Made by a program: the position numbers and the translations under genes
Notes under the pieces: generated by a model
Told to the model about the DNA's origin: nothing
The model's input: only the letters and a program-made list of their open reading frames with translations
The model's database searches: none
Part shown: piece after piece, positions 10,538-58,468 of the stretch
How the letters are laid out: each line of letters begins with the position of its first letter
Position numbering within the stretch: the stretch's first letter is position 1
Origin: Moniliella sp. 'wahieum'
Lineage: Eukaryota
Direction of reading: 5' to 3'
Length of the DNA stretch: 64,000 bases
NCBI GenBank assembly: GCA_003971905.1
Contig: RSEE01000001.1
Coordinates: forward strand, 868,001 to 932,000

Positions 10538-10574
10538 GTTGAACGTTAAATGTCAAACGTTAAATGTGTTAAAC
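10538..10574. repeat. 7-nt-period GTT(G/A)AAC-type array
   Basis: GTTGAAC GTTAAAT GTCAAAC GTTAAAT gt GTTAAAC. Confidence 0.75.
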
Positions 10575-11040
10575 TAGCTTCAATGGTGCAGCTGAAGCTT
10601 GAAGTTGATCCACGGCAAGCCGGCCAGCGCTAACCGGCGCTAATAACCGGGTAACCATGCTAAAAACCTCCACTTTTTTGACGTCCTTAGTACTGTTTTG
10701 TCGATTATTCCCAATTGCGCACGCCTTCCTCGGGCCCATGGCCTCGGGTTCGATGTCAGGATCTCAGATATCAGATCCAAGGGTACTCATTACTAGTGTC
10801 TTAGTTACCAGTGGCTGTCAGAAACGTCGCTGGAACCGTCGGGAGAGAAGATACGCCGCACTTGGCGGCCTCAGGCTGAACTACCCTGGTCGTGTTGCGC
10901 CTGGCTGCGCAGGCTGCGCTACTGCTCCACGCCCGCTTGAAAGCCATGCGGTTCTGGAATCCCACATCCCCCGCAAACTCTGCTGAAAGCGCTGAAGCAG
11001 GCTGAAGCTGAAGCTCTTGAAAAACTAAGTTCAACTGAAC

Positions 11041-11075
11041 GTTTAACACGTTTATAACACGTTTAACCGTTTAAC
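11041..11075. repeat. GTTTAAC array (inverted counterpart of the 10538-10574 array)
   Basis: GTTTAAC at 11041, 11061 and 11069, plus GTTTATAAC. Confidence 0.7.
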
Positions 11076-11944
11076 GAAGGTTCAGCCTGAGCACTTAGCC
11101 TGAGTGCCTGAACAATCATCAAATCATCGATTCGATCGCCGGTAAATATATTGTGAATCATGGTGACGATCACCTGTCCGAAAAGTGCTTCGGGAAGCTG
11201 AAGGGCCGCATATGTCCAAGTACTAAGTATAGGGATGCAAAAAAGGACTCATGGAGAGAAAAAAGATGGAGAGAAGGTTTGGGTTACTCCGGCCCGGTTG
11301 TTGTGGGTCTCAGATCTCATCGATCTCATGATAGAGGCCACGATTTTCCAATGATTAATGGGAAAAGATGCATGTGGTAACTCGAGGATCAGACCTCCAG
11401 ATGGTTGCATGCCGTGTATTCACATCAGACAGCGCTTGCCAAGGGCGGGCCAGGCCAGGGGGATTACCCAGGTTTGAGGGGTACAATCCCTTACAAGACG
11501 GAAGGACGACTCACGGTCGTTTCGGGCGTGGGCTATAAAAAGTTAGTTGGTGGATCCGAGAGAAGGAGAACTAAGAGCGAGGAGAGGCCTTTGGGCGTGA
11601 AGCCGAGGCGGCGGCATATGTGGCAAGGCGCATCCGCTTAGTAACGTGTGAATCCTCCGGGTCTTGGGGACGGATATAGAGGCAGTGGAAGAGAACAAAC
11701 GTTGCCAGAGTTGGGACGGAACAGGGGTTACTGGTGACGTGACTGGAAAGGAACCCAAGGGATAATCTGGTACGGGGACTCGACGAGGCTGAAAGAAGGC
11801 TCGCCCGACTGGGTAGATGGAAAGCTGAGGGACGAGGTTGGAAGACGAAGATGTAGCTAAATGGAGACGAGAAGTACTATAAATCAATTAACTGGAAACT
11901 AGTAATGGACGGAAGGGAAAACTAGGCATGGGCTAGCGGTGCTA

Positions 11945-12698
11945 TGCTTCTCACCAATGTGGCACTGCATTCTCGAGGGCCTGTATTAATTCGGGCCAAG
12001 TTTTGGCATCTGATTTGGTTCCAGTTTCGGATCAGAAGGTTTTGGTTCGGGCGGAGGGGGGCAAAGCAGTCAAGGTGAAATATCCACTCTGCTTCGAGGG
12101 GGGGCTCGGAAGGAAACCAAGGAAGCCAGGGTGGACAATCTAGCCAGGCTCCCTGCGGTGGTGGTCACCTAGTAGTGGCTCAGCAGATGGCTCTAGAGGC
12201 GGGCATCGCGGTGGTGATCACCGCTCGGGAAACGACCAGTCGTGGGACAACACCATAGTTCACTATTACAACAAGGTCCGCTCTGTCCACCAAGCTGGAG
12301 CCGTTATGTGGGATGATACGCTGGCTCAGTATGCCAAAAACTCTCTGGCCTCCGATAACTGCGTGTTCAAGCACAGTGGTGGAAAGTATGGCGAGAACAT
12401 CGCCGAGGCTTACTCCACCGTTATACGGCTGCGATGAAGGAGTGGTACGATGAGTACAAAGACTACAACTACGCCAACCCTGACTTCCTGGAGAACACGG
12501 GGCACTTCTCTCACATGGTCTGAAAAGGCACCAATAAAGTTGTTGGATGCATCCAGCAATAAACGTGCGAGTACAGCGACACATTTGTCGTGTGTGACAT
12601 GTGGGTACAGCCCAGCGGGCAATATCGTCGGTGGTAATTCCTTCAAGGAAAACGTTCTCCTACGGAAGGGAGATTCGAGAGATAGCGATAAGCAGTGA
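11945..12698 (+). pseudogene. CAP/SCP/PR-1 (Pry1-like) family gene, apparently decayed; 5' end approximate
   Basis: Translates YNKVRSVHQAGAVMWDDTLAQYA..CVFKHSGGKYGENIA..AMKEWYDEYKDYNYANPDF..TGHFSHMV*KGTNKVVGC..*..YSPAGNIVG. In-frame stops lie at 12521 (at the conserved W of HFTQVVW) and at 12560, plus frameshifts. Confidence 0.8.
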
Positions 12699-12941
12699 TC
12701 TGCCGTGTATATATCGCGCGAAAGCTGATCATCTCCGGAGGCAAAAGTCAAATTCTTTCTGTGACGATCGAGATCGATCAGATCCTTCTCCATTATGTTG
12801 ATCCAGCTGGCCTGGGCCAGCTATGGTGTAGGCCACGAGAACGCCACAGCAAAATTTTGTGACAAATTCAACACGTTGATCGCCTATAAGGAGGTGCGTG
12901 GAAAGGGCGCAAGGCGAAAGAAACGCGAGGGAGCGAACACT

Positions 12942-14341
12942 TTAGTACTCCTCTTCAACCTCCTCTTCCACCGTCTCGGCAGCAACCTCCTCGTAGTCCT
13001 TCTCAGAGCCGCCAGGTCCTCGCGGGCCTCGGAGAACTCGCCCTCCTCCATACCCTCACCAACATACCAGTGAACAAAGGCACGTTTCGAGTAAAGCAGG
13101 TCGAACTTGCGGTCCAAGCGGGTCCAGGCCGAAGCAATAGCCGTTGTGTTGGACAGCATGCAGAGTGAGCGGCTGACCTTAGCCAGGTCTCCCCCGGCAA
13201 CTTGTGTGGGTGGCTCGTTGCAGATACCAATCTTGAAGCCAGTGGGGCACCAGTCGACGAACTGGATCGTGCGTTGGTCTTGATAGCCGCCACGGCAGCG
13301 TTGACGTCCTTGGGGACGACATCGCCACGGTAAAGGAGACAAGAGGCCATGAACTTGCCCTCACGCGGGTCGCACTTGACCATCTGAGTTCCCTTCTCAA
13401 ACGCAGAATAAGTCATCTCCGCCACGCTGTTCTGCTCGTGTGCGGCATTGTCTGCCGAAAGGATGGGGGAGAGCGAGGCGAGGGGAAGTGGATGCGGGGG
13501 AAAGGAACCAGGTTAGTCTGGAACTCGTTCAGATCCACGTTGAGTGAGCCATCGAAGCGGAGCGAGGCCGTGACGGATGAGACGACCTGAGCAATGAGCG
13601 GTTGAGGTTCGAGTATGACGGCGATTGGATACCGAGCTTCGTCTTGGCAATGTCGTACAGGGCCTCATTATCGACCATGAACGAACAGTCAGAGTTCTCC
13701 AGCGTGGTATGAGTCGTCAGGACTGAGTTGTACGGCTCGACAACCGACGACGCATCATCGGGGCAGGATACACTGAGAACTCGAGCTTGGCCTTCTTTCC
13801 GTAGTCCTGGGCCAGATGGTCGAGCAGGAGAGAGCCAAAGCCCGAGCCCGTACCACCACCAAACGAGTGGAAGACGAAGAAGCCCTGAAGGCCCGACGTG
13901 GCGTCGGCCAGCTTGCGGACGCGGTCGAGCGTCTCGTCGATCAACTCCTTACCCACAGTGTAATGACCGCGGGCGTAGTTGTTCGCAGCATCTTCCTTGC
14001 CGTCACGAGGGTCTCGGGGTGGAAGAGCGAACGGTATGTACCCGTGCGCACCTCGTCAACAACGTTGGGCTCCAGATCAACGTAAACCGACCGGGGAACG
14101 TACTTGCCCGAACCCGTCTCAGAGAAGAAGGTGCTGAATCCGTCGTCACTCTGCGAGGGCGAGCCCTCCAGAATGTGGCCGTCAGGCGAAAGGCCGTGCT
14201 CAGCCAGGTAAAGTTCCCAGCAAGCATTGCCGATTTGGATACCGGCCTGGCCGACGTGGAGAGAGATAACCTGTCGGCGGGGGGAAGCGTTAGAGCTGGA
14301 GAAGGCAAGCGAAGCCACGGGATGCGCCATACCTCACGCAT
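12942..14341 (-). CDS. TUB1: Alpha-tubulin (one intron after MRE; several 1-nt assembly deletions)
   Basis: [66 protein letters not shown], and C-terminal EEY*. Confidence 0.98.
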
Positions 14342-14529
14342 GTTGCTTGAGAAGGATCAAAGGACTAGGGGGAGAGATGCGGAAGCGATGGGGGGGAGTA
14401 CTCAGCCCTGGCAAAGTAACGTGCAGTGGCGAAAGCGGCCGGTGGTGGAGAGAAAAAAGAAGCGCAGCTGCTGCGTGCTGCTCTATACCCGATGATGCGT
14501 CGAGCCAGCTCGCAACCCACAGGGCCAGG

Positions 14530-14550
14530 CCTTAGGCCTTAGGCCTTAGG
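14530..14550. repeat. (CCTTAGG)x3 in the alpha-tubulin promoter
   Basis: Three perfect units about 190 bp upstream of the ATG. Confidence 0.85.
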
Positions 14551-17144
14551 CGTTACTGAGGCTCGCTCTCACTGCTCCAGTGCAGGTCTCTGTGCCTGGC
14601 GCTGCCAACAACATCGTGCAAGTTCCCCCGTGCCTGTGTTGATAGTGTCGATCATGCAATACGCATCACGCATCACACATCAAATAGTCTCGGGCCCATC
14701 CAGGGGCACGCGTCGGGTGTGCTCTGGCACTCGACTTCCTTTTTGATTTTTGCGCCATACAGAAGCGGCCTCTCAACGGTATGGCTGGGACCACTCGCTT
14801 TCACTTCCCTGGGACCTCTCCTCTCTCACTCTTGTCGTATAGCACACCGGCATCACGCATGTACGGCATCTCTATGCCATCCAGCCTCTCGCCCGGAATC
14901 GGGGGGGTGCTTGTGTGGTCCACGGATAAAGATGACATCAATTTTATGCAATGGCCCATGGCTCCTCGCCCTATAGATCGAGATTAATAAAGGGTTCTAA
15001 CGTATCCTGACGAGAATCTCCCTTCTCTTTGGATCTGAGATAGAGGCAGGGGTTGGAGTGCGATGTGACTAACGATGCGCTATCACTTGTGATAGAGCGG
15101 CTGTATGGGTCAAGTCCCTATTAGGGCAAAAGCAGATGATAAACTACTGGAGTATAGCGACTACTGTAGCGCTTGCCGTGACTGACGCCTCGTCTTCACC
15201 TTCGTTTGCACCGTTGCGCTCAAGGTCAGACTAGCGTCAGATGCTCAGAGGCAGCAATCTCTGAAGATTGTTTCCTTTTACTCGAAACAGTGCAATCATC
15301 TTTGGAAGTTATATAGAAGCTGTAGCTACCCTCATTAAGACGCGTGATGCATGATGCACCAACGCGGATCATCCCCCTGGTGATCATCGACACGTCTGCT
15401 GAGCGCCACCACCTGCCTGGTGTGTTTGGCCAAGATCACTATCGAGTCCCTCCTCCGGCTCAGTGTGGTCGCGTCACCCTCGAAGACCATCAGATGGCTC
15501 CAGGTCTCATCAACATCCTCGCATGTCTCCCTATCGATCGACCCGCAGGTGGGGAAAACGAAAATTGGAGGGGAGGTCACTCTGGCAGACTGTGGCCTGG
15601 TGAGCTATGCTGCTGCACAGGTCGGTGGTATTGGGGTCGAAAGGCGTACACACAGGGGACATGGTCAGAGGGCGTTTGTGGAGCGGCTTGCGACAGAGAC
15701 GGAGAGGGTGGGCCGTGTCAGAACTGGAGCGGAGTCCAACGATATATAAAGGTGGTGATGGGGAGAGGATGGATTCATGACCTCCAACGAGAAAAGAACA
15801 AGGATATGGCAGTTGGCATTCGAAGGATTCTTTTAGCGGACGAGCGGCAGTATGAGAGGGGAGGGGGGAGAGGAATCAGCGCAAGCAGCGTAGAATGCGG
15901 CAAATGCGGCACGATTTCGCAGCCACACTGAGGAAGGGATTGGGCAAACAAGAACGTCCAAGGAGAAAAGTAGAGCACTGCAATGATGGAGTGGTGGTGG
16001 TGGGTTGAACGTTAAACGTGGTCGGAGGCCGGAGAGTCTGCTAAATAAGCCTCACACTGCTAGACTAATCATTCAGCCACACGCCACGCCCTGCTACACC
16101 AAGAAGAGGCGTGGGTTCTAACAAGCCGATTGTGAAAGAGGACGAGGTCTGCAGGGAGAAGGTGATGGATCTATACTCCAAAAGAGAGAGGGGCCCGTTA
16201 GGCCGCGCTTAGGGACAGAATATAAGGGAGAGTCGGATAGAACACTGAGAGCGCCAAGTGTGATGCGTGACCAGCTGCATGCATGATGCATGATGCCGCT
16301 GACTCCGATGTTATACACCACGAGATCCGATCGATCCCAATACACACAGATGCATTTTGCCCTTAGTGCCTAGTACTGGAGTCAGTGTTTGAGCTATTAG
16401 CCTCGCATTACTTATTCGTTGTTCAGGCACTCTTTTACTGCAAGTAGTTTTCTTGGCACCTTGGCCTTAGGCCTTATTGCCCGAGAGGTGTGGTCAATGA
16501 TCGGCATGTGAAGGTGACGTGGCATTTGATGCCGTCGAGGGGGTCGGACAGGGTCAGACAGAGCCAGACTGCAGACTACTGTGGAGCAGCCAAAATGTTG
16601 TCGTGGCGTCAGCGGCGGCCGGATTGCGGGGAAGGTACGTCTATCTGCCGGCGAACGGGCAGGAGGACTTGCTCGAACAGCAGGAAAGGCAGAGCGCGGT
16701 CTTTGTTGCGACACATTGTGATGTGCGGTGCGCGACGCGTGGAGTATGAACGTTTCAGGGTTCCGTTTATTGCGGGGGCGGGGCATGGTGATATCCGGTG
16801 ATATACGTGTCCTACCCGCCCCCTCTGTCCCACCAGGGCAAGGGCTTCGCCCGTCGGCCTGGGCGCTGAGCCCCTGAGCCACCGGCCGAAGGGAGCAGCA
16901 GGCCATACGGTTAGTGCAGGCAACCAAATGCACCTGGCCGGGCGGGGCGAGCCAAAGAGCAGATGCGACGTGGCGGGGGAGATGGCTCTTGCCCCATGGC
17001 CAGCGGAGCTAGCGTCCATAGTATGCGCGATCTCTGGGATGCCTGTCGTGGCCATAAAAGTTTGAAGCTTTGCGGTTTGGCCTGCAAGCGGCAAGCTGCA
17101 GCTTCAGAGATCTAAGGGCGCGCTGGTCGCTGATCGATGTCGAG

Positions 17145-17193
17145 GATCGCTGATCCTCGATCCACGATCCACGATCACCGATCACCGGTCACC
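17145..17193. repeat. Drifting 7-nt-period GATCNNN array upstream of the OSBP gene
   Basis: GATCGCT GATCCTC GATCCAC GATCCAC GATCACC GATCACC GGTCACC. Confidence 0.75.
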
Positions 17194-17539
17194 CGCGTTC
17201 AGCGCCGAGAAAATGGAGGCACTGGGGCACTCTTGGGGGCCATCAGGCGGGGATGGCGGGCGGACAGCGTATGGTGATATGAGGCAGGCTGGGCAGGGCT
17301 GTGCATGAGGGCAGTGTAGCGATTAGGGTTGCCCACGTCTTTCAACCACATTCGTCCGCTCCCCGCCGCGGAAACTTGCGAGTTTTGGGTTGAACGTTGG
17401 ACACCACCACCACCCGCCCCTACCTCCTCCCTCCCCTCCCCAGCACCTCTGGCCCCTCCAGCATCCCCACCCTCTCCTCCTAACACCAGTCCCTACGTGC
17501 CTGCATTGCTCCCTCTGATTTCACCACCACGAACGCATA

Positions 17540-18834
17540 ATGGGATTGTCTGGCTTGCTCGGCTCGTCCAAGACGCCGCCCAAGGACAAGGACGCACAGG
17601 ACAATGCCGACGACATGGAGGAGCTTGACGAGGAGAATGGCAGCATCCTTCTCAGCTTGATTGGACAGCTGCGTATTGGGATGGATTTGTCCCGTGTTAC
17701 ACTGCCCACTTTTGTCCTCGAACCTCGCTCGATGCTGGAGCGCATCACTGACTTCATGTCCCACCCCGACCTCATCTTTGGCGCGGGAAAGATCGAAGAC
17801 CCAGCCGAACGTTTTGTTGCGGTCATGCGCTACTACCTTGCCGGATGGCATATCAAGCCAAAGGGCGTAAAGAAGCCGTATGTACCGCTCTGCCTGCCTC
17901 CTTTACGAGCGCCTGAACCTAACCTCATCCTCATCTGCAGGTACAATCCTGTGCTTGGAGAGTTTTTTGAGTGCTCTTACACATACGCCGATGGTTCTCA
18001 CGGCTACTACATTGCGGAGCAAGGTGTGTTGATATCTCTATTCTTTCGTGCTGGCCATTAACCTTGGCATTACCAGTGTCGCATCACCCCCCGATCAGCG
18101 CCTACTTTTACTGTTCGCCCGACCACAATGTGCTTATTTATGGCGAGCTGCAGCCGAAGAGCAAATTCTTGGGTAACAGTGCGGCAACGCTTATGGGTGG
18201 CGAGAGCCGGGTTGTACTTCTTGACCGGCTAGCCGACGGCGAGTATGTCATTGGAATGCCCAACATGTACGCCCGAGGGATTCTCTTTGGCAAAATGGTT
18301 TTGGAATTGGGCGACACGTCGCTAATTGAGTGCAAGGCCACCGACATGGCCTGCACGGTTGAATTCAAGACCAAGGGCTATTTCACAGGCACCTACAATG
18401 CCATTGAGGGCAAGGTGACCAAGAAGGGTAAGAGTGTGGGCGAGGTGACTGGTAAGTGGTCAAACGAAATGGATTACAAGAATGCTTCGACGGGCAAGAC
18501 GTCGGTCTTGTTCTCTGCCAAGAATGCTGTCATTGCACCTAAATCAGTGCGACCCGAAGCTGAGCAGGCGCCCAACGAGTCGCGTCGCCTGTGGGCTCAG
18601 GTTACCAAGGCAATCGCCGCCAAAGACATGAATGGCGCGACTGAACACAAGACCGCGATCGAGGATGCCCAGCGGCGTTCGACGCGTGAGCGTGAGGAGA
18701 ACAACTTGGACTTTGTTCCGCGCTTCTTCGTTTATGCCGAGTCGCTTGGGAGGTACGTGCCGCGGATCAACGCTCTGTCAGCTCCCTTCCAGGCTCCTGC
18801 TGTGGCACATTATTTTGCTCAGCTGCACTCGTAA
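17540..18834 (+). CDS. OSH6: Oxysterol-binding protein, short Osh6/Osh7 type; 2 introns (~17878-17940, ~18024-18077)
   Basis: LIGQLRIGMDLSRVTLPTFVLEPRSMLER, KKP/YNPVLGEFF, and the EQ/VSHHPP OSBP signature. Confidence 0.92.
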
Positions 18835-20514: not shown

Positions 20515-20611
20515 GGCGAGATAGCGAAGTGGTCTAACGCGCTGTGTTAAGGCATCTTGAGTTCCTTGACCGCAGTCCTCCGGGGCGTGGGTTCGAATCC
20601 CACTCTCGTCA
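20515..20611 (+). tRNA. tRNA-Leu(AAG) with 17-nt intron (20553-20569) and long variable arm
   Basis: GGCGAGA TA GCG..CGC G CTGTG TT AAG G [intron] C CGCAG TCCTCCGGGG C GTGGG TTCGAAT CCCAC TCTCGTC A, followed by TTTTT. Confidence 0.93.
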
Positions 20612-24746: not shown

Positions 24747-27433
24747 CTACAGCTCCACCAAGCTGGCATGTTGCCATCCCACTCGCACGATCACATAGAG
24801 GGCAAACAGTTGTATACATGTGGGTGCACTCGTTGGAAGGGAGAATGCGATATAAGGCAAACTACAGTGTAGGCGCCAGTGAACCCAAACACATCCATCG
24901 AAGGCCGGTTGGGACTCCTTCTTGGAACGCCGTTTTTCTTCGCGAGTGCGGCGCTGCCGTGCTCCTGGGCGCTCCTTGAGTCGCCCCAAAACGCTCCTGG
25001 CATACGCCTTTGCAGGACCGTTGGTAGGCGGTGATCATGTGCATCGCATCGCACGATGATCAGGTCAATGCCCATAAGCGCGCGCCCTTGGGAGTAAGGC
25101 CGAGCTGTCTACTGATGAACTTCAGTTGGCCATCGGATATGGGATCTTGACGCCAGGGGGCATCACGAAGCATAGTCTTGCACCCATTTCCGCAATTAAT
25201 GGAAACATAATTGTCGCTACCCGGATCGCCACCTCCAATTCGTAGTCCGCTACAATGCGCATTGATTGTGCATTGCGCGATCTTTGTCCAGGAGAGATAA
25301 GCTGAGGAGTAAACGTAGCCAGCCAAGCTGAGAATCAGGACAGTTAGTATAGTACGAAAGATGGCAAGTTGACTTACCCGGCGGACGGTCAGGAGAACGG
25401 TCGAGGCTACATTTAGTATCCAGGTCAATCAGCCACCCGCCTTCATCCTCTCTTCTTCTTTCTTCTCGCCCTCTTCGTCGTCTAGTTCATCATCAGGAAT
25501 AGCATCCGCACTTGGAACCACTCGAATACGCCCAAACGAGGGGATACTGAGAATGTATGTCGTTGGCACATTGGGTCCACTCAAATTGCGAGAGCTTTAA
25601 AACGGGGTTGCGATGTTCCTCCTGTATGTCAATCGCTTCCTGCAACGAAGCGACTGAGTCATAATCGACCATAGTCATAACATCGGTTCCGTTGGGAGTA
25701 TCAGGCCCCTCTTCTAGTGCCATTGCAAGAATAGAAGGATTAGACGGAGTCTCCTTCTTGCGCTCTTTGAGGGCAGCTTTGCGTGCTTTCAACTCTTCCA
25801 GGCTCACTTGTTCCATCTCCTCATGAGGGTCCAAGCCAAACAAAGTCGGAGCACATACTGCCCCTCCTGCGCCCTTAGCGGCAGAGACATAGTCAAGCAC
25901 CAGGCAATCCACTTTTCCCGTATCGGGCGACTGGCGCGTCCCGCGTCCAATCATCTGCTGGTACCTTCCTTGGCTGCGGGTAGGGCGCGCGATCAATATA
26001 CAATCCACGGGTGGGATGTCAGTTCCCTCGGTAAACACGCCGCAGTTGACCAAGACCGGGAATTCCCCCTGCCGAAAGCGCTGCACAATGTCGGTACGAT
26101 CAGTCGAGGATGTCAAACCATCCACTCCATATGCGGCAATTCCAGCCCGACGGAAAGCATCCACCACTCCAGCCAGATGAGAACGAGTGGCACAAAATAC
26201 CAACGTGCTTCGACGGCGGTATTGCCCGCTTGTGTCGCCATCTGCTCGTGAGGGTAAATTCCAACACCGATCGAGCCAAGTATTGACAAGAAGCTCATTG
26301 AGTCTGTTGGTATTGAGTGCCTTGTCCATACTTGCCATGGTAAAGTCGCCCTGTCCGTCCAGGGTATCTGGTCGATCGGCGGTCGAGATGCGCAAGTCAC
26401 TCAGGTCGATGTGCCCTTGGATCATAGTAAAACGTAATGGCGCAAGGTGTCCTAGATCCATCAAATCAAGCATACCGTTGTGATACACAATCTTTTCAAA
26501 CACCGAACCCAGTGCCAGCCCATCGCTCCGGGTAAGGTGGCTGAAAACCCAATGAGGGGAGCATTATATCTCTCAACAGGTGTGGGGGACGCGGACGTGT
26601 CAACGGTATCCGGGGGCGCAACGCAGGGTGGAAGTATTCGAGGACCTGCCTCCATGTCCCTGCACAGACATGATGGGCCTCATCGATGATTACTGCCTTG
26701 AACCCAGAGGGATCAAACTTCCGTAATCGAGCCCCATTTTTGGCTGCTAGGGATGCAACAGTGGCGATCGTCACATCTGCCATGCCCGTGGCCTCTGTCT
26801 TCCCTTGCTCCATTTCGACCGTAAGATCCGGGTGGCCCCGCGAGACTGATATGGTTGTCTGCTTGGCAATCTCAACTGAGGGAACAAGAATCATGACTTG
26901 GCCTCCCCTCTGGTACTCTCGCCCGCTCCAAGTGGTGTCGTCGTTGTTGGTACGTGAGGGTATCAGCTTGAGCAGAGAAGAGCTATTCAAGGAAGTCAGT
27001 ATCAGTGTCCCCAAAGGAGTGCATTCACTTACAATATAATCGTTTTTCCACTTCCGGTGGGTGCACTGACAGCTATCCTGGTCAAGCCATCGTCCAGAGC
27101 CCCGGTGCAAGCATCTATGCACTCAGCTTGGTAGAGGCGCAACTCAACGGGTGAGGGCGAAGCCCCATCCGTAGGAGAAGCGAGAGGTACCATATCGTTG
27201 CGCGTCAGTCCTTTAGAGATAGTAGGCCTCTCAACCTGCTCTTCCGAAGCCTCAACTGGTTCCCGATTGCGTACCCGAGCGCGCTCGGAGAGGCCCCTGG
27301 AACAGACGCGGCAGCCGTACGCAACGCCGACAGGGCAGTAGCATTGAGTTTGACTGCACCTTCCACGCATGCGGGTAAGCTGATAGGAGAGGACACGAGA
27401 CAGCGGGACGCGAGCCCCGCCGAGCCAGACCAT
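24747..27433 (-). CDS. IRC3: Irc3-like mitochondrial DExH helicase (ends approximate)
   Basis: LRLYQAECI, APTGSGKT, IIDEAHH, IGFSAT, LVNCGVFTEGTDIPPVDC, RPTRSQGRYQQMIGRGTR, and C-terminal APWR; Arg-rich N-terminus. Confidence 0.88.
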
Positions 27434-27833
27434 CGTGTGGCAAAAGGTGCGTAGATGCAACTCGGTGTGGTGGAGCCGAAAAATCGCATTCGCCCCTCGT
27501 TGAATTGCATCTCGGTACCCCCGGTCGGTGCAACGCACTACCGGTTTCAACGTTAAACTAATGAGGCTGTTTTCTCTCAGACGTACAGCTGCCGGAATAA
27601 ATACTTCAAGCTTCATCGACATCCCCACTCCTGTATAATGGTTGTCACCGGCCGTTTGCGTTCTCCGTTGGGTTTGTAGATTGTTATATGGCAGTGTGTC
27701 GTCGTCTACTACTATGACTTCGATGATCGATGACTAGGGACTGGTCAAAATGATAGGAAAAGTGGTTGAGTATGTAGTAGTACATGGCTCGTGATCACGA
27801 CCGCAGGGGCTTTTAGAGGGTGCCTGCTCCTCT

Positions 27834-29150: not shown

Positions 29151-29831
29151 TGTCCTCTCTTGTGGGATGCGGTGGTAGCTCGCGCTTTGAGCTGGGCCTC
29201 ATTTTCTCAGAGGGAGGAGGGGGCAAAATTTTTGCAACTCCGCCTGGGCGGAACGCGGAGGACCCAGTGCCGGACTGGACGTATTTGAACGTTGAACAAA
29301 CTTAAATTTCAACTTTGCTGATATCAAGCTCAAGTCTGAACTCAATGCGTCCTGTCCGGGGTTGATGCTGACGCGTGACGCGTGACGCATGGCGCCAGCA
29401 CGCCTTTTCTCATTGACTGTGCGCTCGTGTGGCGTGCCCCGTCAAGGCGGCGCCAGGCGTCAGATCTCGGATCTGCGTCCGTTCGGCAGGCACGCTCTTT
29501 ACCATGACCCGAACAAGTAGTCCCAAGGGCAGACTCTCAACAGATTCATATCCATCTCATCTGCCCCCCCTTCCCTACGATCAGTTCTACTCTCCCCCGC
29601 GTCTCCTCACGCCAGACATCCGTCGACTGAGAGTGAGGAAGAAGGTAAAGCCCTCGACGCCACTAACAAGAAAATCATCCGATGACACTTCCTCGTACAA
29701 AACAAACGGGATAGGTAGAAGAAATCGTAGGTACCATCAACAAAGGAACTGCATACACATATGCATGTATAGCTAACATGGTTTAGCACCGAGTCCAAAC
29801 AAAGGACTAGAGGCATGATGCTGGCTGTCGC

Positions 29832-34276: not shown

Positions 34277-34972
34277 ACCCTACGCCCGGCAAAAGCCTAC
34301 CAACCATTTCCTCCTATCCGAGGCCCGCTCCTTCTCCGAGCCCCTATCCTCCTCCCTTTAGGTGCGAAGGAGGGATAATTTCTACCCAGCGTGCAGCTGG
34401 CACTCGGTTGATTATTTGTGTTATGCTTTAACCAATGAGCCGAGGGCCTCCGTGGATTAGCTGTGACATGTTGTGAGCTATCAATGGGGCCCCTTACACT
34501 TGCGCCGTGTTCCTCTCCCTTTTCCGGTCGCCTGGCCATGGTCACCTGGGGCAGGTGGTGGCGCTGTACCGGAGGTGAAGCTGCGACTGGGGAGGACGTT
34601 AATTTGAAGTACCATATTGGAACCGGGGGGGAGGCTGGAAGAGCTGATGATGATGATAACGCTTTGTGTAATATACTCTGTTCTGTTTTGGTACGATTGT
34701 GTAGTAGGACATGAAACGGTGCACGAAGTTCACCGCCAATATTCATGCAGATGCCTGAGAGTCGAACGTCGAACGTTGAGCAACCGTTTGAGATCAGAAC
34801 TCTCTTCTCTGAACTCTGAACTCTACTAAAACTGTCGGCACGCGTGCGCATCACGTGTGTGTGCTATGCATGCTATGTGCCATGCATCGTGTCCTGTGCA
34901 GCCCGGGGAACGAGGAACGGAGGCCAATCCTCGGAAAGGGCAGTCTGATGTCTGACCCTCGTTCCTCTGCCC

Positions 34973-35014
34973 TTGAAGCTTGAAGCTTGAAGCTTGAAGC
35001 TTGAAGCTTGAAGC
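34973..35014. repeat. (TTGAAGC)x6 perfect heptamer array in the CDC42 promoter
   Basis: Six perfect units about 330 bp upstream of the ATG at 35346. Confidence 0.95.
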
Positions 35015-35345
35015 TCGACTGTCCAAGGTGTGCCAGTGGCGTGCCCAGAGTGCTCCAGATGGGCTACGGCAGCCGGTCAGCTGAGCCTGAGGCCTCGGCA
35101 CCAGCTGGACTTGAGCCTCGGATCGCTAACCCTGGGCCGCCGCCCTCGCCCTTACGTCACGTATCACGCGTCGTGCTTCATCCATCATCCACGGGCCCAG
35201 CCAATCGCCGCTGCCCCGCATGGGGCGAGTGTCCTGCAGCAGCGGCCGTCTGGCCCATCTGTCGGACGCGCCGCCAGGGCGAGATAGACGGGGTGCTGGC
35301 CAGCCCCTTCAAGCTGACCACCACCTGCTTGTTGCGCTGCCGGCC

Positions 35346-37599: not shown

Positions 37600-38608
37600 T
37601 TACGCCCGGGAGTTTGCAATCGTAGTGATCAGAATGTCCGATGCGCCCACGGCCTCCAGACGGTCCATGATCGTTGCGGCCTCAGAGCGCGCAATCATTG
37701 CCGATACAGCATTCCAGGTCTCATCTTCAAGGGGCATAACGGTCGCTGCCCGGCGGCCGGGGGTGATCTCGAGGGCGGCAGGCAGGGCGGACTTGGTAAT
37801 GTTGTAGGTGCAGAGCACGTAGCGTTGCGCTGCAATTACACCGCGGATTCGGTTGCTGATCAGGTTGATTAGTTTCGTATCCGACCGGGTGTGGGGCTCA
37901 GCGGAACGGATAAGCGTGGCCTGAGATTCGAGGAGGGTCGCAATCGGCGCCAGACCACAGGCGCGCATCGTCTCCCCACTCTCCACCAAGTCAACGATGC
38001 CGTCCGCAATGCGAGGGCGCAGGCAGCTTCAACGCTCCCGCTAACAAACTGGATCTCTGTCTTCTTGCCTGAAGCGACGCGCTTGTCCAGGTCGGCAAAG
38101 TACTCGCCCGCAAGTGGTCAAAGGAGGGGTAGCAATCCGGCACCCCACCAGGTCCTCCACCTTCTTCATTGGACCCTGTGCGCCAAGCTCCCACGAGGTT
38201 GCAGAGATGGGTCGGGCACCTGCACTTGCAGCTTGCACTTGCCAAAACCCAATGGAAGTACCTCGGTCACTCGCGACGAAATTGCCGTGCCGCTCTCGGC
38301 AACCATGTCCTGGCCCGTGATGCCGAGATCGACGTTACCGAGACCGACAAAGCGAGGAATGTCGGCAGCGGAAGGAAAACAAGCGCCATAGGGAAATTCT
38401 GCACCAGCGCAACGTCAAGCCGGTGCTGGCGCTTGAATTGCACATCCGCCCCCTGCAAAAGCTCCAGGCACTTTCGTACAGGCGGCCTAGCCTCCGCGCG
38501 TCAGCGGACCGTCCACACCTGGGATCAGAAAAAATACACACCCTTTTTGGGGATGGCAAAGAGCATCCGGTTGTTGAGGTCTTCGCTCGCCAGGAGATTC
38601 GAGGCCAT
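37600..38608 (-). CDS. HIS1: ATP phosphoribosyltransferase (one intron after PKKG)
   Basis: RMLFAIPKKG/RLYE, GADVQFKRQHRLDVAL, GNVDLGITG, DLVESGETMRACGL, ITPGRRAATV. Confidence 0.95.
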
Positions 38609-40285: not shown

Positions 40286-40334
40286 CATGATGCATGACGC
40301 ATGATGTATGATGAATGATGCATGATGCATGATG
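40286..40334. repeat. (CATGATG)-type heptamer array, 7 units
   Basis: CATGATG CATGACG CATGATG TATGATG AATGATG CATGATG CATGATG. Confidence 0.9.
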
Positions 40335-43297: not shown

Positions 43298-43753
43298 GAG
43301 GACAGAGTGCAGGTCAGGGTCATCGGCAGGCCTCAGGGCAAACGTCTGTCATGGCCACCGCCAGCCAGGCAGGGAGAGGAAGAGAGGAATGCTGCAGGGG
43401 GGAGAGGGGGGGGGGGAGGAGGAGGAGGAGGCGGTGGTGGTGGCGATGGGCCTGCTGCGGGTGGTGCGCACGAGAGAAGGTGGATGTGAGCGCCAGGACT
43501 GGATGCCTGGCTTACCCAGTGGCTGGCCTGAGGCGATGCAAGGCAGGCGGCTGCAGCCACGGCGGCGGCGGTGGCCATCACTAAATCACTAGTCGCTAGT
43601 CACTGCCGTCGAGGCTGCGCACAGCGCCCAGGCCGTGCCGGCGCGCTCCGGCGGCTGACGAGTGTGTGTATTAGGTAATGCGCCTGGATCGGCAGCGGGC
43701 AGGACGCGTGTGTGGGCGTTCCAGCCCAGCTGCGCCCCAGGGTGCACCTGATG

Positions 43754-43792
43754 CTTGAAGCATGAAGCATGAAGCATGATGCATGACGCATG
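43754..43792. repeat. Mixed CTTGAAG/CATGAAG/CATGATG/CATGACG heptamer array
   Basis: CTTGAAG CATGAAG CATGAAG CATGATG CATGACG CATG. Confidence 0.88.
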
Positions 43793-44445
43793 CTACCACA
43801 CGGTGCAAGCGCGCTCCCGCCGTGGCAGCGTGCATAGAGCCTGACAGGGAAAGCGCACCTGCTGCGGAGAATTGTGGGCAGGCACAGACTGGCGCGTGCT
43901 GGCACCCGCAACGAACACCACATAGTGCAACCGTCCAACGCGCCCGCGCCCGCCCCGCCCTCGTTACATGTTACAGTGGCCACCAGCCAAATCCCCGTGA
44001 CAGCCCCCGCCTGAGCACAGCCTGTGCCCTGATTAATTATAGGCCCTCGTATGGCCTGTTGCCTGTTCCCGCGCGCTTCAGCCCACTTCGCCGTCACCGT
44101 CCCCACCGCAGCCAGCGGCGGTCTTTTATCCGCTCTCGTAATCGATAATCGCCCTGAAATACGCTGCAGTTTAGATACATCCCCACGAACCCGGAACCAA
44201 AGCGGTACCCAGCTCTCGGCTACTCGGGTGGCCAATGCACACACTAGAGACGCACACTCAAATCAATACGTCATACAGGGTCGGTGCAAAAGGAACGTGC
44301 GTAATGCCTAGTGAATGTTCAGAAGTTCATTCGCGTTGGAATTGCAACATTGCTATTGGTTCATGGATATGCGCGATTAACCATCGAGCTGGCCCACCCC
44401 CGCCACACCGACCCATCCACCACCACCACTACCAGCATCCGCATC

Positions 44446-49477: not shown

Positions 49478-49998
49478 TCAGGCAAGCCCAGCCACCAGCC
49501 CGAGGGGGAAGACGAGGTGGAAGCGTGTGCGAGCGAAGTGGCTATTGGTTGCAACGCCGCGGCCGGGGTGGGGTCGGTAGGGGGAAACCCAGCCAGGTCG
49601 GGGAAGGGTCTCGAAGAGCGTAGTCCACGACCATCGGATGCCGTGGGAGATCCAACAGGCACACACCCGGGGCACATCGCTGGCCAGCGCCGCAGCGGCA
49701 GCCGCCTGCGGCGGCAGGGCTGGACTGCCTAGCTCAAACCCGCTGCGCCAGTAGCAGGTCGAAGCGAAGACGCTGACCAGGATCGCCGAGCAGTACATGC
49801 ACGGCCGTGTCTGGAGACAATAGGAGGCGAGGAAGAGCGCAAGGGTGAGGGGTGACAGACCCGGTAGCGGGAGGAGAAAGATGGGCATAAACCATCTCTG
49901 TGGAGGCGGGAGCGGGAGGAAGAAGGCATGAGAAGATCAGCTGTGGAAGGGGGGGCGGTACAACCGCGGCGTGTGGGTGGACATACTAGGCAATACAT
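49478..49998 (-). CDS. BLCAP/Bc10-family small membrane protein; 12-nt first coding exon, intron 49898-49986
   Basis: The spliced product MYCL/RWFMPIFLLPLPGLSPLTLALFLASYCLQTRPCMYCSAILVSVFASTCYW matches the BLCAP pattern MYCLQW..P..RKPCxxC; GTATGT donor, CTGAT branch and CAG acceptor are present. Confidence 0.85.
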
Positions 49999-50659
49999 CG
50001 TGCTGGGCGTACACCCGCGTGCAGAAAGCGTGGCGGCAGCAGTGGCGGTGGAGGCGGGTGTGCCGATGCTGATGCGACGGCTCACACGCGCAGGCAGCCA
50101 CTTGGGCGTTGAAAGTTGAAGGTCCCAGTTGAACGTTCAGTTTGGCCCGTGGCCTCAACGACGGCTGGAAGACGATGGATGACGCGTGGCGTTGAGGGTG
50201 GCAATGCATGACGCTGCACGTGACACGCTGTCGCTTAGGCGCTCAAAGATTCAACGAGAGAGACGGGGGGTGGGAGACACGACACGCGCGGCGCCGCTGC
50301 CTGGCCCCGACGGGGGGACCAGCACCCAGGACAGCCGAGCACCGCCTCAGAACGGGCTTTGGCGCAGCCAGCCGTGCCGCGGAGCCCCTTGGCCTGGTTC
50401 GGCCGCCGTGTCTGCGCGGGGTTCAGCGGTGGGGTGGGGACACGCCACCAGCTATAGTTATCGATTATCGAGGTAGTCGCAGTCCCACAGGCCGCGGCAG
50501 TGCTGCGACGCACATCCTCAATCATTTATCATCCGCTGCTGCGTGTTTGTCAGGCACGGATGGCCATCTCGGGACGCACATTTTGATTCAAAACCCCCCG
50601 CCCACCTCCGACCCGGCATTCTGTTCCCCCTCATCGCCACCACCTCCCCATCTCCTCCC

Positions 50660-52599: not shown

Positions 52600-52794
52600 A
52601 AACGATTCCTTTTCCTATCGGGTCTCTTGTATCCAGACCGACTCTTTTTACCGCACCTGTTCAACCCCCTCATTCTTGTTTCTTGAGAAGCTCAAGGTGT
52701 GTGTGTGTGATTTCTATGGGGTGAAAGCCAATGACGAACAGGACAATAAATACTACATATCCGAGAGGGCATGGAAAGTACACTTTATTAGGAT

Positions 52795-53861: not shown

Positions 53862-54440
53862 CGCTCAAAGAGGTGGTGGTAGAGGACAAAAAGATGGCCA
53901 CATCTACGCGGCGCAGTTAAGTATTCCAACTAAGTATTGGGACCTCGTTGGCCCGCCACCTGAACCAGGGGGTCAGGCCGGTCAGGTGACCTCACCGGTG
54001 AAATTTGAGAGGGCAGTGCTAGGGCTCACCTGTACGGCCCTCAAGTTGATCGGTGACGTGTGACATGTGACGGTCAGCCAGACGGGAGAGTTCCGTTCGC
54101 AGGCTGCGAACCCCCTGTTCGCTCCATCTCTCTTCTCTCTCTCCTGTCTCCGTTTCTTCAGAGTGCTTGAAGACTTGTGGCTCACCACGTTGCCTTGAAG
54201 CCTCGTCTGATGGGTGTTCTGTGTATCATGACCAGCTGTGTGATGGTTGCTCCAAGTCGTTTTGGTTCAAGACGAGTCGACAAGCCAAAAAAATGGTTCA
54301 TGCACAGAAGGAAGAAGTACAAAGAGATATAAAGATCAAACGGGATATACAGGGCATCGCAAGGTGATCCTACCAGTACATACACACGGACTCCTCCATG
54401 CCAGTAAAGGAGTGATCACTGCAGATTCGAGGAGCAGACG

Positions 54441-56362
54441 TCATGCATCATGACTCCGCAGCAGCTTCGGACTCAATGTCCGCATCAGCAGAACCGCCTC
54501 CACTGGGATGTGAATAAGAACAAGGCGAAAGGCGTCCGCGGGAGCGGCCCCGCTGGGAACAACCATCGTCGGCGCAGGTTCGACTGCCGCAAGCAGCGCA
54601 TTCTCGTCCTCCCCCAGTTCCGTCTCATCGGCACTATCCCTTCCTCGGTAGGGCACGATACATCAGTGCCAGGTCCGGAGGCAGTTGGCTGCTGCGACTT
54701 TGACGGGAGAAAGCGAGCCCAAAACGATGGCCAGGTTGCCCTGTTGCCCGAAGTCTCTTGTACAGCAGTGTTGCGCTCGCCTGAAGCATCTGACTGAGAA
54801 GCCGAGTTGGGGGGGGGAGGAAACTTGGGGTTGGGCCAAAGTTAGGCCAGCACCTTGCGGGCTGGGGGGATTGCTGCAATAGGGAGGTGGGCTTGGAGGT
54901 GGGCTAGATTGACTTGTTGGTTGAGGAGCCTCCCGTTCATCCCCGGCGGGTGGCATAGGCGCGCCCCCAGGCTGAACTGAGGACGAAACAGGCCTTGGAC
55001 AGAGAGACGAAGTAATGGGCGGGGGCGAATTGGGTGAGCTGCTGAGGTCAAGTTGCAGTGGCGCTGGAGGAGGAATCCTTCGGATGCGTGGTACTAAATC
55101 AGGTGGAGCAAGGTGCGCCACGTCAAAAGAAGGAGGCGGAGGGCCCGACTCTTCTTGTGTTACTGGCATATCGGGAATACGCCCGCAAATCCAGACCATA
55201 CTCTGGGAGTAGTCTGTGAAGAGAGGAACCCACACCATGATCATCCAGCTCTGGAACAGCAGATCCACCCCGCCGCAAGCAAGATCGAGCCCCGGATAGC
55301 ACCATAGGGGGGTGGGGGGGGCAATGTCCCCATCATGGGGGCGAATCCGAGCCGGCGCACGTTAGCTTCAATAAAGAGGAAGCCAGCTTGGCCAAAGTTA
55401 ATGTGAATCTCGGCAGGTCCATTGGCAGCGATGGTAGGGAAAAATTGGCCCACGATAGGCCACAAAAGGCATCGCGCAAACGCCGACCGTTTCGAGTAAA
55501 GAAAACGTGCCCCCCACGCGGGTGGAACCCAACACCAATCACGTCGCCTTGAGAATAGGTTGGGCCATACGATGTTTGTTCCAAGGGTGGTTGTGGCACT
55601 TTGTTCCATCGGAAAAGTATCCGACCGATAGGCGCTGGAAACCGGGAAACGGAAGTGAGGGTAAGGCTTAGGAGCGAGGCCGACGGCAACTTGGTCTGGG
55701 GCGGCAGATCAAACATCTTGACTTCGAAGTAGTAAACACTGTTCATTCGGGGCACCGGCAAGTTCGACTGCACGCATGCCGCCCCTCCCTCTTGCAGTGC
55801 CATACCCACTCCGTCCGGGAGAAAGCTGAGCTCGGTCCGTGCCGAGACAAGAATGGAAGGATTGTCTTCATAATTGGGCTCAACGACCAAGCTGCTACCC
55901 CCTTTTCTTGGATACTTACCGACTGGCTCGAGGTAATTTCAGTAGGGACCGATCCCAAGGGATGCTCGGTGGCCCAAACTTTGGCCCGCATGTACCCCTC
56001 GGCGGTTGCAGATTGGTTGTTGGCGACGAGCCCCTGAATATAAGCCGACTCGCGGCACGCCAAACCTTGTCCCACCTCATCATCGTGTTGTACGTCGACC
56101 AAAATTCGTCATCGCCAAGTGGATCGAGTCAGACCGACGAAAAAGGGAAACAGTGATGGTGAAGAGGAGAAGGATGAAAAGAGCGTGCCAAACAAGATGA
56201 GCAAGGTTAAAAGCGAACAAAGGGATCATGCTCGGGAATCATCCCCCCAGGGGGGGACATCCCAGTCATCTCCAGCTGGCGCTGCGGCAGCGCTAGAGGG
56301 AGCGGCGCTGACGTGCTAGAGCGATGAATGAAAAGAGCCAACGCTGAGCCTGGGCAGCCCAT
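54441..56362 (-). CDS. SSH4: SPRY-domain membrane Rsp5 adaptor, Ssh4/Ear1 family
   Basis: N-terminal TM; SIQEKGVAAW; CVQSNLPVP..VYYFEVKM; YGPTYSQGDVIGVG..FFTRNG; FPTIAANGPAEIHINFGQAGFLFIEANVRR; PPPPY. Confidence 0.88.
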
Positions 56363-57297
56363 GGTGGCATCGGGGAGCGACGCGGTGGCGCGTGCAGGTA
56401 CGGCAACCGGCTGGCTGCTCGAGTGGCGAGGGGGAGGAAGAAGTGTGCGGCCCCTGGACATGCGCGTGGGTCGCGGGGGGCCCTGGGCGGCGAAGCGGGG
56501 AGCATTCCTGCCGCGTTGCTCGTAGCGGCAACGGATGTGCGGCGCGCCAAGGACGCCTCTGCGCACGATCGTTGGGAACCATGGCACAGCGTCACGGCCA
56601 CAGCCAGGCAGCCCGTCGCCGGGGGAGCGCCAGACACAGACACAAGACGGAGGCGGTGGGCCAGAGTCGCAGAGCAATCATCGGAGTGGACGATGCGTTG
56701 AGGCAGCGGGGACTGGGCAACTGAAAGTTTGAACCGCTCTCCAAAATCTCTGATCTCAGCACTTGTGAAATGCGATGTGACCCATGTGACCCGTGGCACG
56801 TCGCATCCGGCGTACCCACGGACCACAACGCACCCTCTAGGATTCCGTTCTTGTAGTCCAAGGCCTATGAGCTTCCCCGGTCTCTCCCCCTGTCGATACA
56901 CCTCCAGAGAAATGTGCATGACATCCAGGTATCTCGTCCAGAGAAGCGATCTCCTGCCTTGTGCTGCCCGCTCACCGAGATCATCGGGTCTATAGGGCTG
57001 TTCGAACGAGACTGGCTAGTAGTACTAGCCACAGCTTGGTAATCTGAAGATATGACGCGGCGAAGAAGTGTCGAGCAGCGCAGCGCTAACATCATTCCAA
57101 CTATGTTCTCCGCCTCGGCCAGAAAGGAGGTCACGATAATGCCGTGGTTTCAGCCTCGCCCTAGGTTCTAGATGGGGCCATCCGCGAATAAGACCATCAG
57201 GTAGCGAGACACATGCATGTCTATGTAAGTAATAGAATAACGCTGTTTTGTCCCACAGGAAGCGAGAGAAGGGAACAGAGGAAAGCAATCCAGTGCA

Positions 57298-58188
57298 TTA
57301 TAGTTTGGGCGCCTGCAGCATTGGGGCAAGGCCAAGGTATGGCATGCAAAAAGGCAGCCATTTGCTACAGAAAAGGTCATTGGCTCAGTGAGTGATTGCA
57401 AGAACGAAGATGGTTACTCACCTCCATGCGATCCGATCCGAAGAAGATGGCCTCCTCCCCATCAGGTCGGATAACCTGGATCCAAGGCACACCAAACGCA
57501 CCCAATTCATCCACCAAAGCTTGTGCTTCAGCCTTCATCCGGGCTTTGTTCTCTGGGGTGTTGGAGAGGGACAACAACTCGTTCAAGTAGGATTCCTGTT
57601 GGGAGTACAATGGCAGTAAGATCGCCTTCAAGTCGTCCAAAGTGGCCAAAGGCAAATCGGATGCCCCCCACGTGGATTCGAACAGGGCCTCAATGGCAGG
57701 AATGAGACGTTTGTTGTCTTTGTCTTTGATGACACGCAGCAGAGCCTGCGCTCGGAAGGTGGGGGCAGGGAAGTTGTCGTGAAGGCGAAGGGGAACTGAG
57801 AAGGAGGAGGGATAGAATACGGATTAGCTCCTTCCTCGTGGAAGCAATCGTAAGTGGCTAAAGGGTGAGAACGTACCATTGAAAGAGCTTTGATGCGCGC
57901 GGTAGGTCCTGAGTCATCATCCATGTGCCCTTGTTGGCGACTGTCATGGGGGGCTTGTTGTTAGAGAAGTGCATGATGTAGCCCTGATTGACGGCGTAAA
58001 ATCCTGAATGTGGCCGTGCAGTGGCAATTGTCAGCGCTGGAGAATGCGGGGGGAGGAGGGTTAAGGTGAGAAGCGAAGGCGGACGTACAGGGAGAGGGTT
58101 CCATGCTTTTTCGAGCGCCGTAGCGTGTAGAAGGCGACCTTGGACCAGGGGGAGACAACGTCAAGTAGAGGCGCACTTGGTTCTTCAT
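57298..58188 (-). CDS. GST-kappa / DSBA-like (HCCA isomerase family) thioredoxin-fold protein, multi-exon, ending APKL*
   Basis: VRLY.DVVSPWS; ENKARMKAEAQALVDELGAFGVPWI..FFGSDRME/intron/QMAAFL..APKL*. Confidence 0.85.
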
Positions 58189-58441
58189 CGTGGTTGGTCG
58201 CAGTCAGGTGGTTGAACACAGTGAAGCGCTGAGTCTCTTGCACCAGTGGATAGTGCCACATCCAATCGGAGGCTGAAGGAGCCACGGCGTATGGATTCAT
58301 TGCCGCCTGGGTGGGGCAGCCTGGCCCCTTTCGATTCTGGGCATACCCGGAAGCTGCCGCAGCGAGTACCCGTGGCTGATCTCCTCTGCCACACAGCTGC
58401 CACCCGGCGCAGCCGCTCCCGGAGGCCACTGTTGGGCGATG

Positions 58442-58468
58442 CATGATGTATGATGCATGATGCATGGT
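58442..58468. repeat. CATGATG-type array in the divergent GST-kappa/APS2 promoter
   Basis: CATGATG TATGATG CATGATG CATGGTT. Confidence 0.8.

Follow-up and report, generated by a model that had tools for sequence, protein, structure and literature searches.

We analyzed a 64-kb stretch of the genome of the fungus Moniliella sp. 'wahieum' (contig RSEE01000001.1, positions 868,001 to 932,000; hereafter the window, numbered from its first base), in which short tandem arrays of 7-base units (heptamers) are scattered through the non-coding DNA. A preliminary description of this DNA had proposed that one promoter grammar underlies arrays of different sequence: each unit would be an odd palindrome XY-T-N-A-Y'X' (X' and Y' being the complements of X and Y), so that T-N-A recurs every 7 bases with palindromic 4-base spacers in between. 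The gene content of the window is eukaryotic. Pfam matches comprise an oxysterol-binding protein (OSBP), argininosuccinate lyase, an IRC3-like helicase, Brix, FHA-RING, P450, SPRY, the clathrin-adaptor small chain and HisG. The best match of the OSBP exon is from Sympodiomycopsis kandeliae (63% identity), and Malassezia matches it at 66% over partial length; for the helicase, identity to any fungus reaches only about 40%. By these similarities the source falls within or close to the Ustilaginomycotina and is no near relative of Ustilago that has already been sequenced. Relatives of the OSBP exon were also sought in metagenomes, but none of the 98 pattern matches was confirmed.

To separate coding from non-coding DNA, we used a self-trained order-2 model. 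It drifted to strand composition, several frames of the same strand scoring together, and we use the resulting map only as a rough guide to coding versus non-coding DNA and to strand; all gene starts are putative. By this map, 37.1 kb (58% of the window) are putatively coding and 26.9 kb non-coding. An exon at 38169-38414 (minus strand) matching the N-terminus of HisG (ATP phosphoribosyltransferase) was overlooked, and the map is therefore incomplete. A search of the 149 open reading frames (ORFs) of at least 70 residues that overlap gaps revealed no Pfam family, except in ORF ends belonging to adjacent genes. In the genes for OSBP (17522-18822, plus strand) and the IRC3-like helicase (25526-27163, minus strand), tblastn with relatives revealed exon frames that shift across gaps of about 40-80 bases. 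These gaps are consistent with very short introns, which would also account for the rarity of long ORFs in the window.

Among tandem repeats of the window, period 7 is the most frequent (19 of 74 rows of Tandem Repeats Finder). Exact lag-7 runs of at least 10 bases occur 10 times, compared with 0.0 in 20 dinucleotide shuffles. Runs of this length are absent at periods 4, 5 and 8; periods 3 and 6, both related to coding, are the only ones to come near period 7. For runs of at least 6 bases we counted 59 lag-7 tracts versus 12.9±3.3 in shuffles; the corresponding counts at lags 5, 8, 10, 11 and 13 are 19-34 versus about 13. An autocorrelation peak at lag 7 had been anticipated, and it is present in putative non-coding DNA, where 3-mer identity reaches 0.032 at lag 7 and 0.024 at lag 14 over a baseline of about 0.020. 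In putative coding DNA there is no lag-7 peak, only a 3-base rhythm. As in slippage-type satellites, the arrays consist of head-to-tail copies of one unit and exceed the number found in shuffles. The region 34761-35015 is a local hotspot of 7-base duplication, with five different heptamers (GTCGAAC, CTCTGAA, GGAACGA, GTCTGAT and CTTGAAG) duplicated within 255 bases.

A disproportionate share of the repeated units is self-complementary. Once homopolymer units were dropped, 17 of the 59 lag-7 tracts had a unit that is an odd palindrome in some rotation (5.6 expected). The tracts were then merged into 53 arrays. Units of the form XY-T-N-A-Y'X' occur in 14 of these arrays versus 1.16 expected (binomial P 6.4e-12), an over-representation of about 12-fold. 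The rule has two components, an inner T.A pair and complementary arms. A register with T and A around the center exists in 26 of the 53 arrays (null 26%), and in 14 of these 26 both outer pairs are complementary (null 8.3%). Palindromic units with any other inner pair number just two (ATCAGAT and CAGACTG; 3.9 expected), and the T.A register is not enriched among the remaining arrays (12 of 39). Therefore, the T.A inner pair and the complementary arms occur either together or not at all. At least 10 different units follow the rule. Arrays made of them account for most of the longest ones and are longer than the others (Mann-Whitney P 0.017). Thus, one rule does lie behind many different repeats, but not behind all of them: it is disobeyed by 39 of the 53 arrays, about 13 of these 39 being expected by chance. 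The starts of the tracts, judged by eye, show no clear preference relative to the unit register. Among tandem tracts of period 6, a palindromic unit is found in 0 of 131 (5.3 expected, P 0.004), and among those of period 9 in 2 of 10 (0.3 expected), namely GCCATTGGC at 164-181 and GCAGGCTGC at 10903-10919, neither of which has a T-N-A center.

The same regularity emerges when the ten-mer TNA-N4-TNA is counted directly (60 shuffles for each ten-mer class). With a palindromic N4, it was observed 41 times versus 7.1±2.5 expected and, outside tracts of at least 13 bp, still 17 times versus 7.1. Other cores flanking a palindromic N4 are not in excess: ANT was observed 5 times (8.6 expected), CNG 19 times (24.8) and GNC 23 times (24.5). 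Nor is TNA in excess with a non-palindromic N4 (114 versus 127.6), and with spacers of N2, N3, N5 or N6 the counts do not rise above shuffles. The two controls suggested in the preliminary description, non-palindromic spacers and N3/N5 spacers, thus both bear out its rule, and none of the outcomes listed there as refuting it was observed; the symmetry regularity is real and specific to T-N-A. Isolated heptamers of the form XY-TNA-Y'X' are not enriched (210 versus 191 expected, z 1.4). One ten-mer, TCAGATCTCA, is present in three unrelated contexts (9597, 11310 and 31865), far above chance for a 10-mer.

Individual arrays, on the plus strand unless noted, vary widely in copy number and purity. 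The purest is (CTTGAAG) x6.3 at 34972..35015; next to it, at 34761..34824, lies a cluster of non-palindromic heptamer repeats (GTCGAAC x2.3 and CTCTGAA x2.6). CATGATG forms arrays of 7 copies at 40286..40334 (with variants CATGACG, TATGATG and AATGATG), of 4.1 copies at 58438..58466, 126 bp upstream of the sigma-adaptin ATG, and of 2.6 copies at 16279..16296; (TGATGCA) x2 at 15345..15358 is of the same type. In the array at 43749..43792 (CTTGAAG, CATGAAG x3, CATGATG, CATGACG), a non-palindromic unit bridges two palindromic ones. CCTTAGG is represented by 4.1 copies at 14527..14555 and, as (GGCCTTA) x2, at 16463..16476. Units of the GTTNAAC type make up a degenerate array (GTTGAAC GTTAAAT GTCAAAC GTTAAAT) at 10538..10572, which includes the ten-mer TGAACGTTAA at 10540, as well as GTTGAAC GTTAAAC at 16004..16017 and irregularly spaced GTTTAAC units at 11036..11075 (Tandem Repeats Finder periods 8 and 11). 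The GTTGAAC type recurs as TTGAACGTTGAAC at 29285..29297, where it precedes the ATG of the Brix-domain gene by about 140 bp, and (CGTGACG) x2.9 lies at 29369..29388. About 100 bp upstream of the helicase ATG is (TCGATGA) x2, of the GATGATC type (27720..27733). Shorter tracts include GTTACATGTTACA (TGTTACA type, 43963..43975), TAATCGATAATCG (GATAATC type, 44139..44151), (TTATCGA) x2 (GATTATC type, 50458..50471), GTGACGT GTGACAT GTGAC (TGTGACA type, 54053..54071) and the isolated ten-mer TGAAGCTTGA at 10593..10602. Two arrays are read on the minus strand: (ACGCATC) x3.1 at 14661..14682, whose minus-strand unit CGTGATG is palindromic save for one G-T pair, and a drifting array at 17152..17193 (GATCCTC, GATCCAC x2, GATCACC x2, GGTCACC) that is palindromic in its final unit only. 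Every word cited in the preliminary description is present at its position, and most of its examples are indeed arrays; GGTCACC (17187) and AGTCACT (43598), however, are single units that end degenerate arrays. Downstream of the array at 58438, at 58592-58760 (plus strand), reads what we take from the expected protein sequence to be the sigma-adaptin N-terminus. By eye, its reading continues only with a one-base frame change at each of two short homopolymers, AA (58643-58644) and CCCCC (58708-58712), which suggests either indel errors of the assembly or a decaying gene. Elsewhere, a tRNA at 20515-20611 (plus strand; Rfam, 47.4 bits, full model length across 97 bases) probably carries an intron; ARAGORN reports no tRNA in the window.

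The arrays are confined largely to non-coding DNA. In the 26.9 kb of putative non-coding sequence there are 35 TNA-pal4-TNA ten-mers (those with a palindromic N4) at 25 loci, versus 4.3 and 4.2, respectively, expected from within-segment shuffling; this corresponds to about one locus per kb. The 37.1 kb of putative coding sequence contain 4 versus 3.8 expected, so that the excess lies outside genes, as had been claimed. For whole arrays, we compiled the lists by hand, both here and in the analyses of orientation, arm covariation, unit drift, core variation and wobble pairs. By the crude map, putative coding DNA harbors 16 of the 53 arrays and only one of the 14 TNA-palindromic arrays, and that one is upstream of an ATG. 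Exclusion from coding DNA, which slippage predicts for a period that is not a multiple of 3, is thus seen at the resolution of this map. The loci are clustered, with four to five in each of the spacers at 9.6-11.3, 16.0-17.2, 43.8-44.1 and 54.0-54.4 kb, and several other spacers have none. On the rough gene map, most arrays are 100-750 bp upstream of putative starts (two of them precede the Brix ATG, by 140 and 230 bp), and four putative convergent spacers contain 0 arrays where about 4 are expected, a comparison subject to the same crude map. Yet the second largest array (40286) is 126 bp past the 3' end of a gene, and the nearest putative start beyond it is about 1.8 kb away. Of the proposed promoter grammar, then, the shared symmetry rule stands, whereas these positions, read off a crude gene map, hint only weakly at a role in promoters.

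With respect to the nearest downstream putative gene, array orientation is not fixed (13 to 9, on the rough gene map). It is biased with respect to the DNA strand: in 18 of 22 arrays containing TGA or TCA (hand-picked from the 53), TGA is on the plus strand (P 0.004). Outside the arrays, hexamer palindromes of the form A....T are distributed 122 to 55 between putative non-coding and coding DNA and those of the form T....A 99 to 81 (P 0.009). Their lean toward putative non-coding DNA (A....T palindromes such as ATGCAT, ACGCGT, ACATGT and ATCGAT, 122:55) is twice that of the other palindromic hexamers (368:330).

What distinguishes base pairing from independent reading of each position is whether the two arms of a unit covary. 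Among 22 distinct units in T.A register, both outer pairs are complementary in 10, compared with a mean of 1.85 when right arms are permuted, and none of 20,000 permutations reached 10. All four Watson-Crick pairs occur at positions 2/6 and three at positions 1/7. Since this covariation goes beyond position preferences, it points to base pairing, which is able to yield such a pattern, rather than to a protein reading TNA. In a single-stranded DNA model, five ideal units are predicted to form a hairpin that has a tip of three bases and a single mismatch in each unit, the G-centered strand being about 2.4 kcal/mol more stable than its complement. Natural arrays vary in this respect, three of them being predicted to fold better than their shuffles: the one at 34972 (hairpin of -13.7 kcal/mol, z -5.5; opposite strand, -11.0), the one at 14527 (-8.5 kcal/mol, z -2.8) and the one at 58438 (z -2.3). 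Across 67 units, mismatches within arrays number 11 at the three central positions and 39 at the four outer ones, a count biased by the choice of register and by array edges. In the arrays at 43749, 17152 and 40286, the unit drifts in blocks of neighboring copies, as expected from duplication and slippage.

Other genomes were used to ask whether the regularity is general. (CATGATG)3 is present in at least 120 metagenome contigs (GC 0.33-0.70); with the 120 loci fetched, the window shares no homology by blastn or tblastn. The 33 contigs of at least 6 kb were classed by ORF coverage and 32 were used; the 87 shorter ones and one apparent overlap (L036, of L022) were left out. Besides the seed, 18 eukaryote-like contigs (210 kb) contain 40 TNA-pal4-TNA versus 47.3 expected, and 14 prokaryote-like contigs (184 kb) contain 35 versus 38.4. 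In prokaryote genomes, 103 of the 121 CAWGWTG x3 matches listed, a lineage-clumped sample, are pure arrays, and these divide into CAAGATG (46), CAAGTTG, which is an A-N-T palindrome (33), CATGTTG (13) and CATGATG (11). T-N-A is thus not preferred among the prokaryote matches listed, which rules out a universal T-N-A bias. Given this and the lack of excess in the control contigs, the regularity is a property of this genome or lineage. Viral contigs gave 1 T-N-A and 0 A-N-T matches, too few to compare. Five prokaryote-like contigs (L005, L013, L068, L070 and L007; ORF coverage 0.89-0.96) have 5-9 different heptamer arrays each, for example of TCCTGCA, CAATTTG or GTCAAAC, and are further cases of the bacterial heptamer-repeat phenomenon. 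CATGATG and CTTGAAG arrays occur together on L064 (7974 bases, ORF coverage 0.09, also with CGACTCG), L067 (1681 bases) and L108 (448 bases), the latter two being too short for the coverage test.

Taken together, the covariation of arms, the lack of enrichment of isolated sites, the absence of gene-related orientation, the strand bias and the hairpin asymmetry favor mutation that depends on folding and has a strand asymmetry of the replication type, rather than a gene-directed element. Our preferred reading, to which we give slightly less than an even chance, is that the arrays are hairpin-capable, quasi-palindromic heptanucleotide micro- or minisatellites that arose in the non-coding DNA of this lineage by a mutational process dependent on base pairing, and that they are not transcription factor sites. 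A single array strand would double back so that 6 of 7 positions pair; T-N-A would make up a tip of three bases, and each unit would contain one N-N mismatch. Such a fold could stabilize slipped intermediates in replication or repair, and foldable units might then be born, kept or expanded more often than others. Better folding of the G-centered strand may set a preferred orientation of arrays relative to fork direction; for hairpin-forming CTG/CAG repeats, dependence of instability on orientation is established. Given that 7 is not divisible by 3, we propose that arrays persist only outside reading frames. The absence of palindromes from period-6 tracts also counts for a folding-based reading. 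Of the two options offered in the preliminary description, a hairpin-templated mutational process is the one that fits better, given the covarying arms, the restriction to palindromic spacers and the isolated sites at background level.

A number of observations weigh against this reading. The pairing model gives no account of the inner T...A pair, nor does any rival. Generic hairpin stability as the cause of T-N-A is ruled out: for five units, the predicted stability of the TNA class is the lowest (-8.3 kcal/mol, compared with -8.7 for ANT, -12.5 for CNG and -13.1 for GNC), and yet ANT, of like stability, has 0 arrays, and the more stable CNG and GNC are not enriched. Two long impure arrays (40286, z -0.4; 43749, z -0.6) as well as the one at 17152 (z -0.3) are not predicted to fold better than shuffles. 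Tracts of just two copies already show the palindromic bias, which is thus more than a filter acting on expansion. On the TGA strand, G-T mismatches outnumber A-C mismatches 11 to 4, which is not significant. The CATGATG unit recurs at 5 loci, and the distribution of arrays is uneven: some intergenic regions contain clusters of them, for the most part upstream of genes, and others contain none. Finally, other contigs with (CATGATG)3 lack the excess, and all results hang on a single 64-kb stretch.

A possible, if rather unlikely, alternative is that the arrays have a function in promoters or chromatin, where they would be read as structure. Negative supercoiling of (divergent) promoters would extrude cruciforms or hairpins tipped by T-N-A, and a structure-specific factor would then bind, or nucleosomes be excluded. 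The 25 clustered loci (4.2 expected), their usual place 100-750 bp upstream of putative starts and their absence from the four putative convergent spacers (about 4 expected, by the crude map) are what such elements would show, and the need for both paired arms and a T-N-A tip is reminiscent of structure-specific recognition. The low variability of the central TGA (11 versus 39 mismatches, in the biased count given above), the lean of A....T hexamer palindromes toward non-coding DNA (122:55 versus 99:81) and the restriction of the excess to this genome agree with it as well. Elements of this kind are, however, difficult to reconcile with the unfixed orientation to genes (13 to 9), the wide spread in copy number and purity, the array at 40286 next to a gene 3' end, and the several intergenic regions without arrays; in addition, mismatch-broken 6-bp stems are weak for cruciform extrusion.

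A more far-reaching reading, which we regard as unlikely, would be a lineage-specific 'structure code', in which T-N-A-tipped heptad arrays are written or read by a dedicated structure-specific protein and their polarity is set by replication direction. The candidates for such a protein would be a nuclease- or transposase-like enzyme making 7-base duplications, or a cruciform or hairpin binder acting at promoters. If true, the structure code would be the eukaryotic counterpart of the unexplained bacterial heptamer repeats, with a defined sequence rule open to experiment.

Doubtful, and clearly less probable than elements read as structure, is an origin as enzyme-written scars. A transposase or nuclease particular to this lineage would cut with a 7-base stagger centered on T-N-A, or process hairpin ends, leaving 7-bp duplications with mutually templated arms that slippage later extends. 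The exact period of 7 over many unrelated sequences, the clustering of different heptamer duplications (five in 34761-35015), a T-N-A specificity beyond thermodynamics and the limitation of the excess to this lineage would all suit such an enzyme. Symmetric target consensuses centered on T-N-A are known for DDE enzymes (GCTNAGC for Tn10, GTWAC for HIV), and hAT/RAG-type cleavage involves hairpin opening with templated palindromic nucleotides. In the window, however, we found no transposase domain and no element with terminal inverted repeats and a flanking duplication of 7 bp or T-N-A; the search for inverted ends with flanking duplications returned only chance-like cases of 3-4 bp. Moreover, a position-weight target preference cannot produce arm covariation, arrays reach 6-7 copies, and the strand bias of the center base (18 to 4) is unexpected for scars. 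A model of 3-bp duplication plus 4-bp footprint fails, as the repeats usually extend past the ten-mer by full units. For a Tc1-like footprint (3-bp duplication with 2+2 terminal bases), the whole-unit periodicity and the two-copy TGATGCA without a third TNA end rule it out.

The main idea of the preliminary description, a sequence-specific factor that reads TNA-N4-TNA and oligomerizes with a 7-bp period, can draw on the 7-bp spacing of TGA in non-coding DNA, on the TGA core as the best-kept part of the unit (in the biased count) and on the known half-site-like words TGACG and ACGCGT in some units, but we consider it very improbable, because non-palindromic spacers are not enriched (114 versus 127.6), arm complementarity is left without account, neither the enriched single sites with position-wise preferences (210 versus 191) nor the fixed gene orientation (13 to 9, rough map) of tandem transcription factor sites is seen, and a 7-bp step would turn each site by about 240 degrees around the helix from the one before it.

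The rule seen in the window is sharp and falsifiable: only in non-coding DNA, and with a period of 7, arms of whatever sequence pair on either side of T-N-A. Should it apply throughout the genome, it would represent either a new mutational signature whose polarity follows the replication strand, which would help to map fork direction and to study the birth of repeats, or a new type of promoter element read as structure; either outcome can be tested with existing fungal assemblies. Eukaryotic surveys of microsatellites (units of 1-6 bases) and of perfect inverted repeats (arms >9 bp) are blind to such arrays. In the full-text literature, where subscription journals are thinly covered, we found no description of nuclear heptamer arrays in fungi, and searches for transposons with 7-bp target sites in fungi, for six array 14-mers and for cruciform promoter repeats likewise returned nothing on the subject.

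Among known systems, bacterial heptad promoter elements offer one comparison. TTTTGAT repeats in the Vibrio ctxAB promoter reportedly serve as protein-binding heptads, and SARP regulators are said to bind heptameric direct repeats. There, too, 7-base units stand in tandem, in promoters, and their copy number matters for transcription; yet one fixed sequence is served by one protein, as opposed to the many sequences and unfixed gene orientation seen here. A survey of inverted repeats and cruciforms across the tree of life considered only perfect arms >9 bp (PMC13155455). The repeats it covers resemble ours in being self-complementary DNA enriched outside coding regions and close to gene ends, and our arrays would be invisible to it because their 6-bp arms are broken by a mismatch. 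Microhomology-mediated tandem duplication has been put forward as a source of tandem repeats, and a 7-bp duplication later expanded in Pseudomonas is cited in the same work (bioRxiv 10.64898/2026.02.28.708716). TGA-N4-TGA amounts to 3-bp microhomology arms 7 bp apart, so that this mechanism might provide a birth step; however, neither a palindromic spacer nor the T-N-A rule follows from it, and it would not favor 7 over other lengths.

Second in closeness to our arrays come hairpin microsatellites of the CTG/CAG type, which share with them the self-complementary units, one mismatch per unit, one strand predicted to fold better and a strand bias. They differ in that the unit here is 7 bases rather than 3, arrays are very short (2-7 copies), many units come under one symmetry rule, and the T-N-A rule for the inner pair is not explained by stability. 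Heptanucleotide tandem repeats are a long-unexplained feature of many bacterial genomes. They are the nearest described counterparts: those of the STRR type, like the arrays described here, are short intergenic series of head-to-tail 7-base units that are often near-palindromic. In bacteria, the arrays are often paired as inverted arms of long hairpins, whereas here none are among 23 local inverted repeats; furthermore, the host of the present arrays is a fungus, and the strict T-N-A rule sets them apart.

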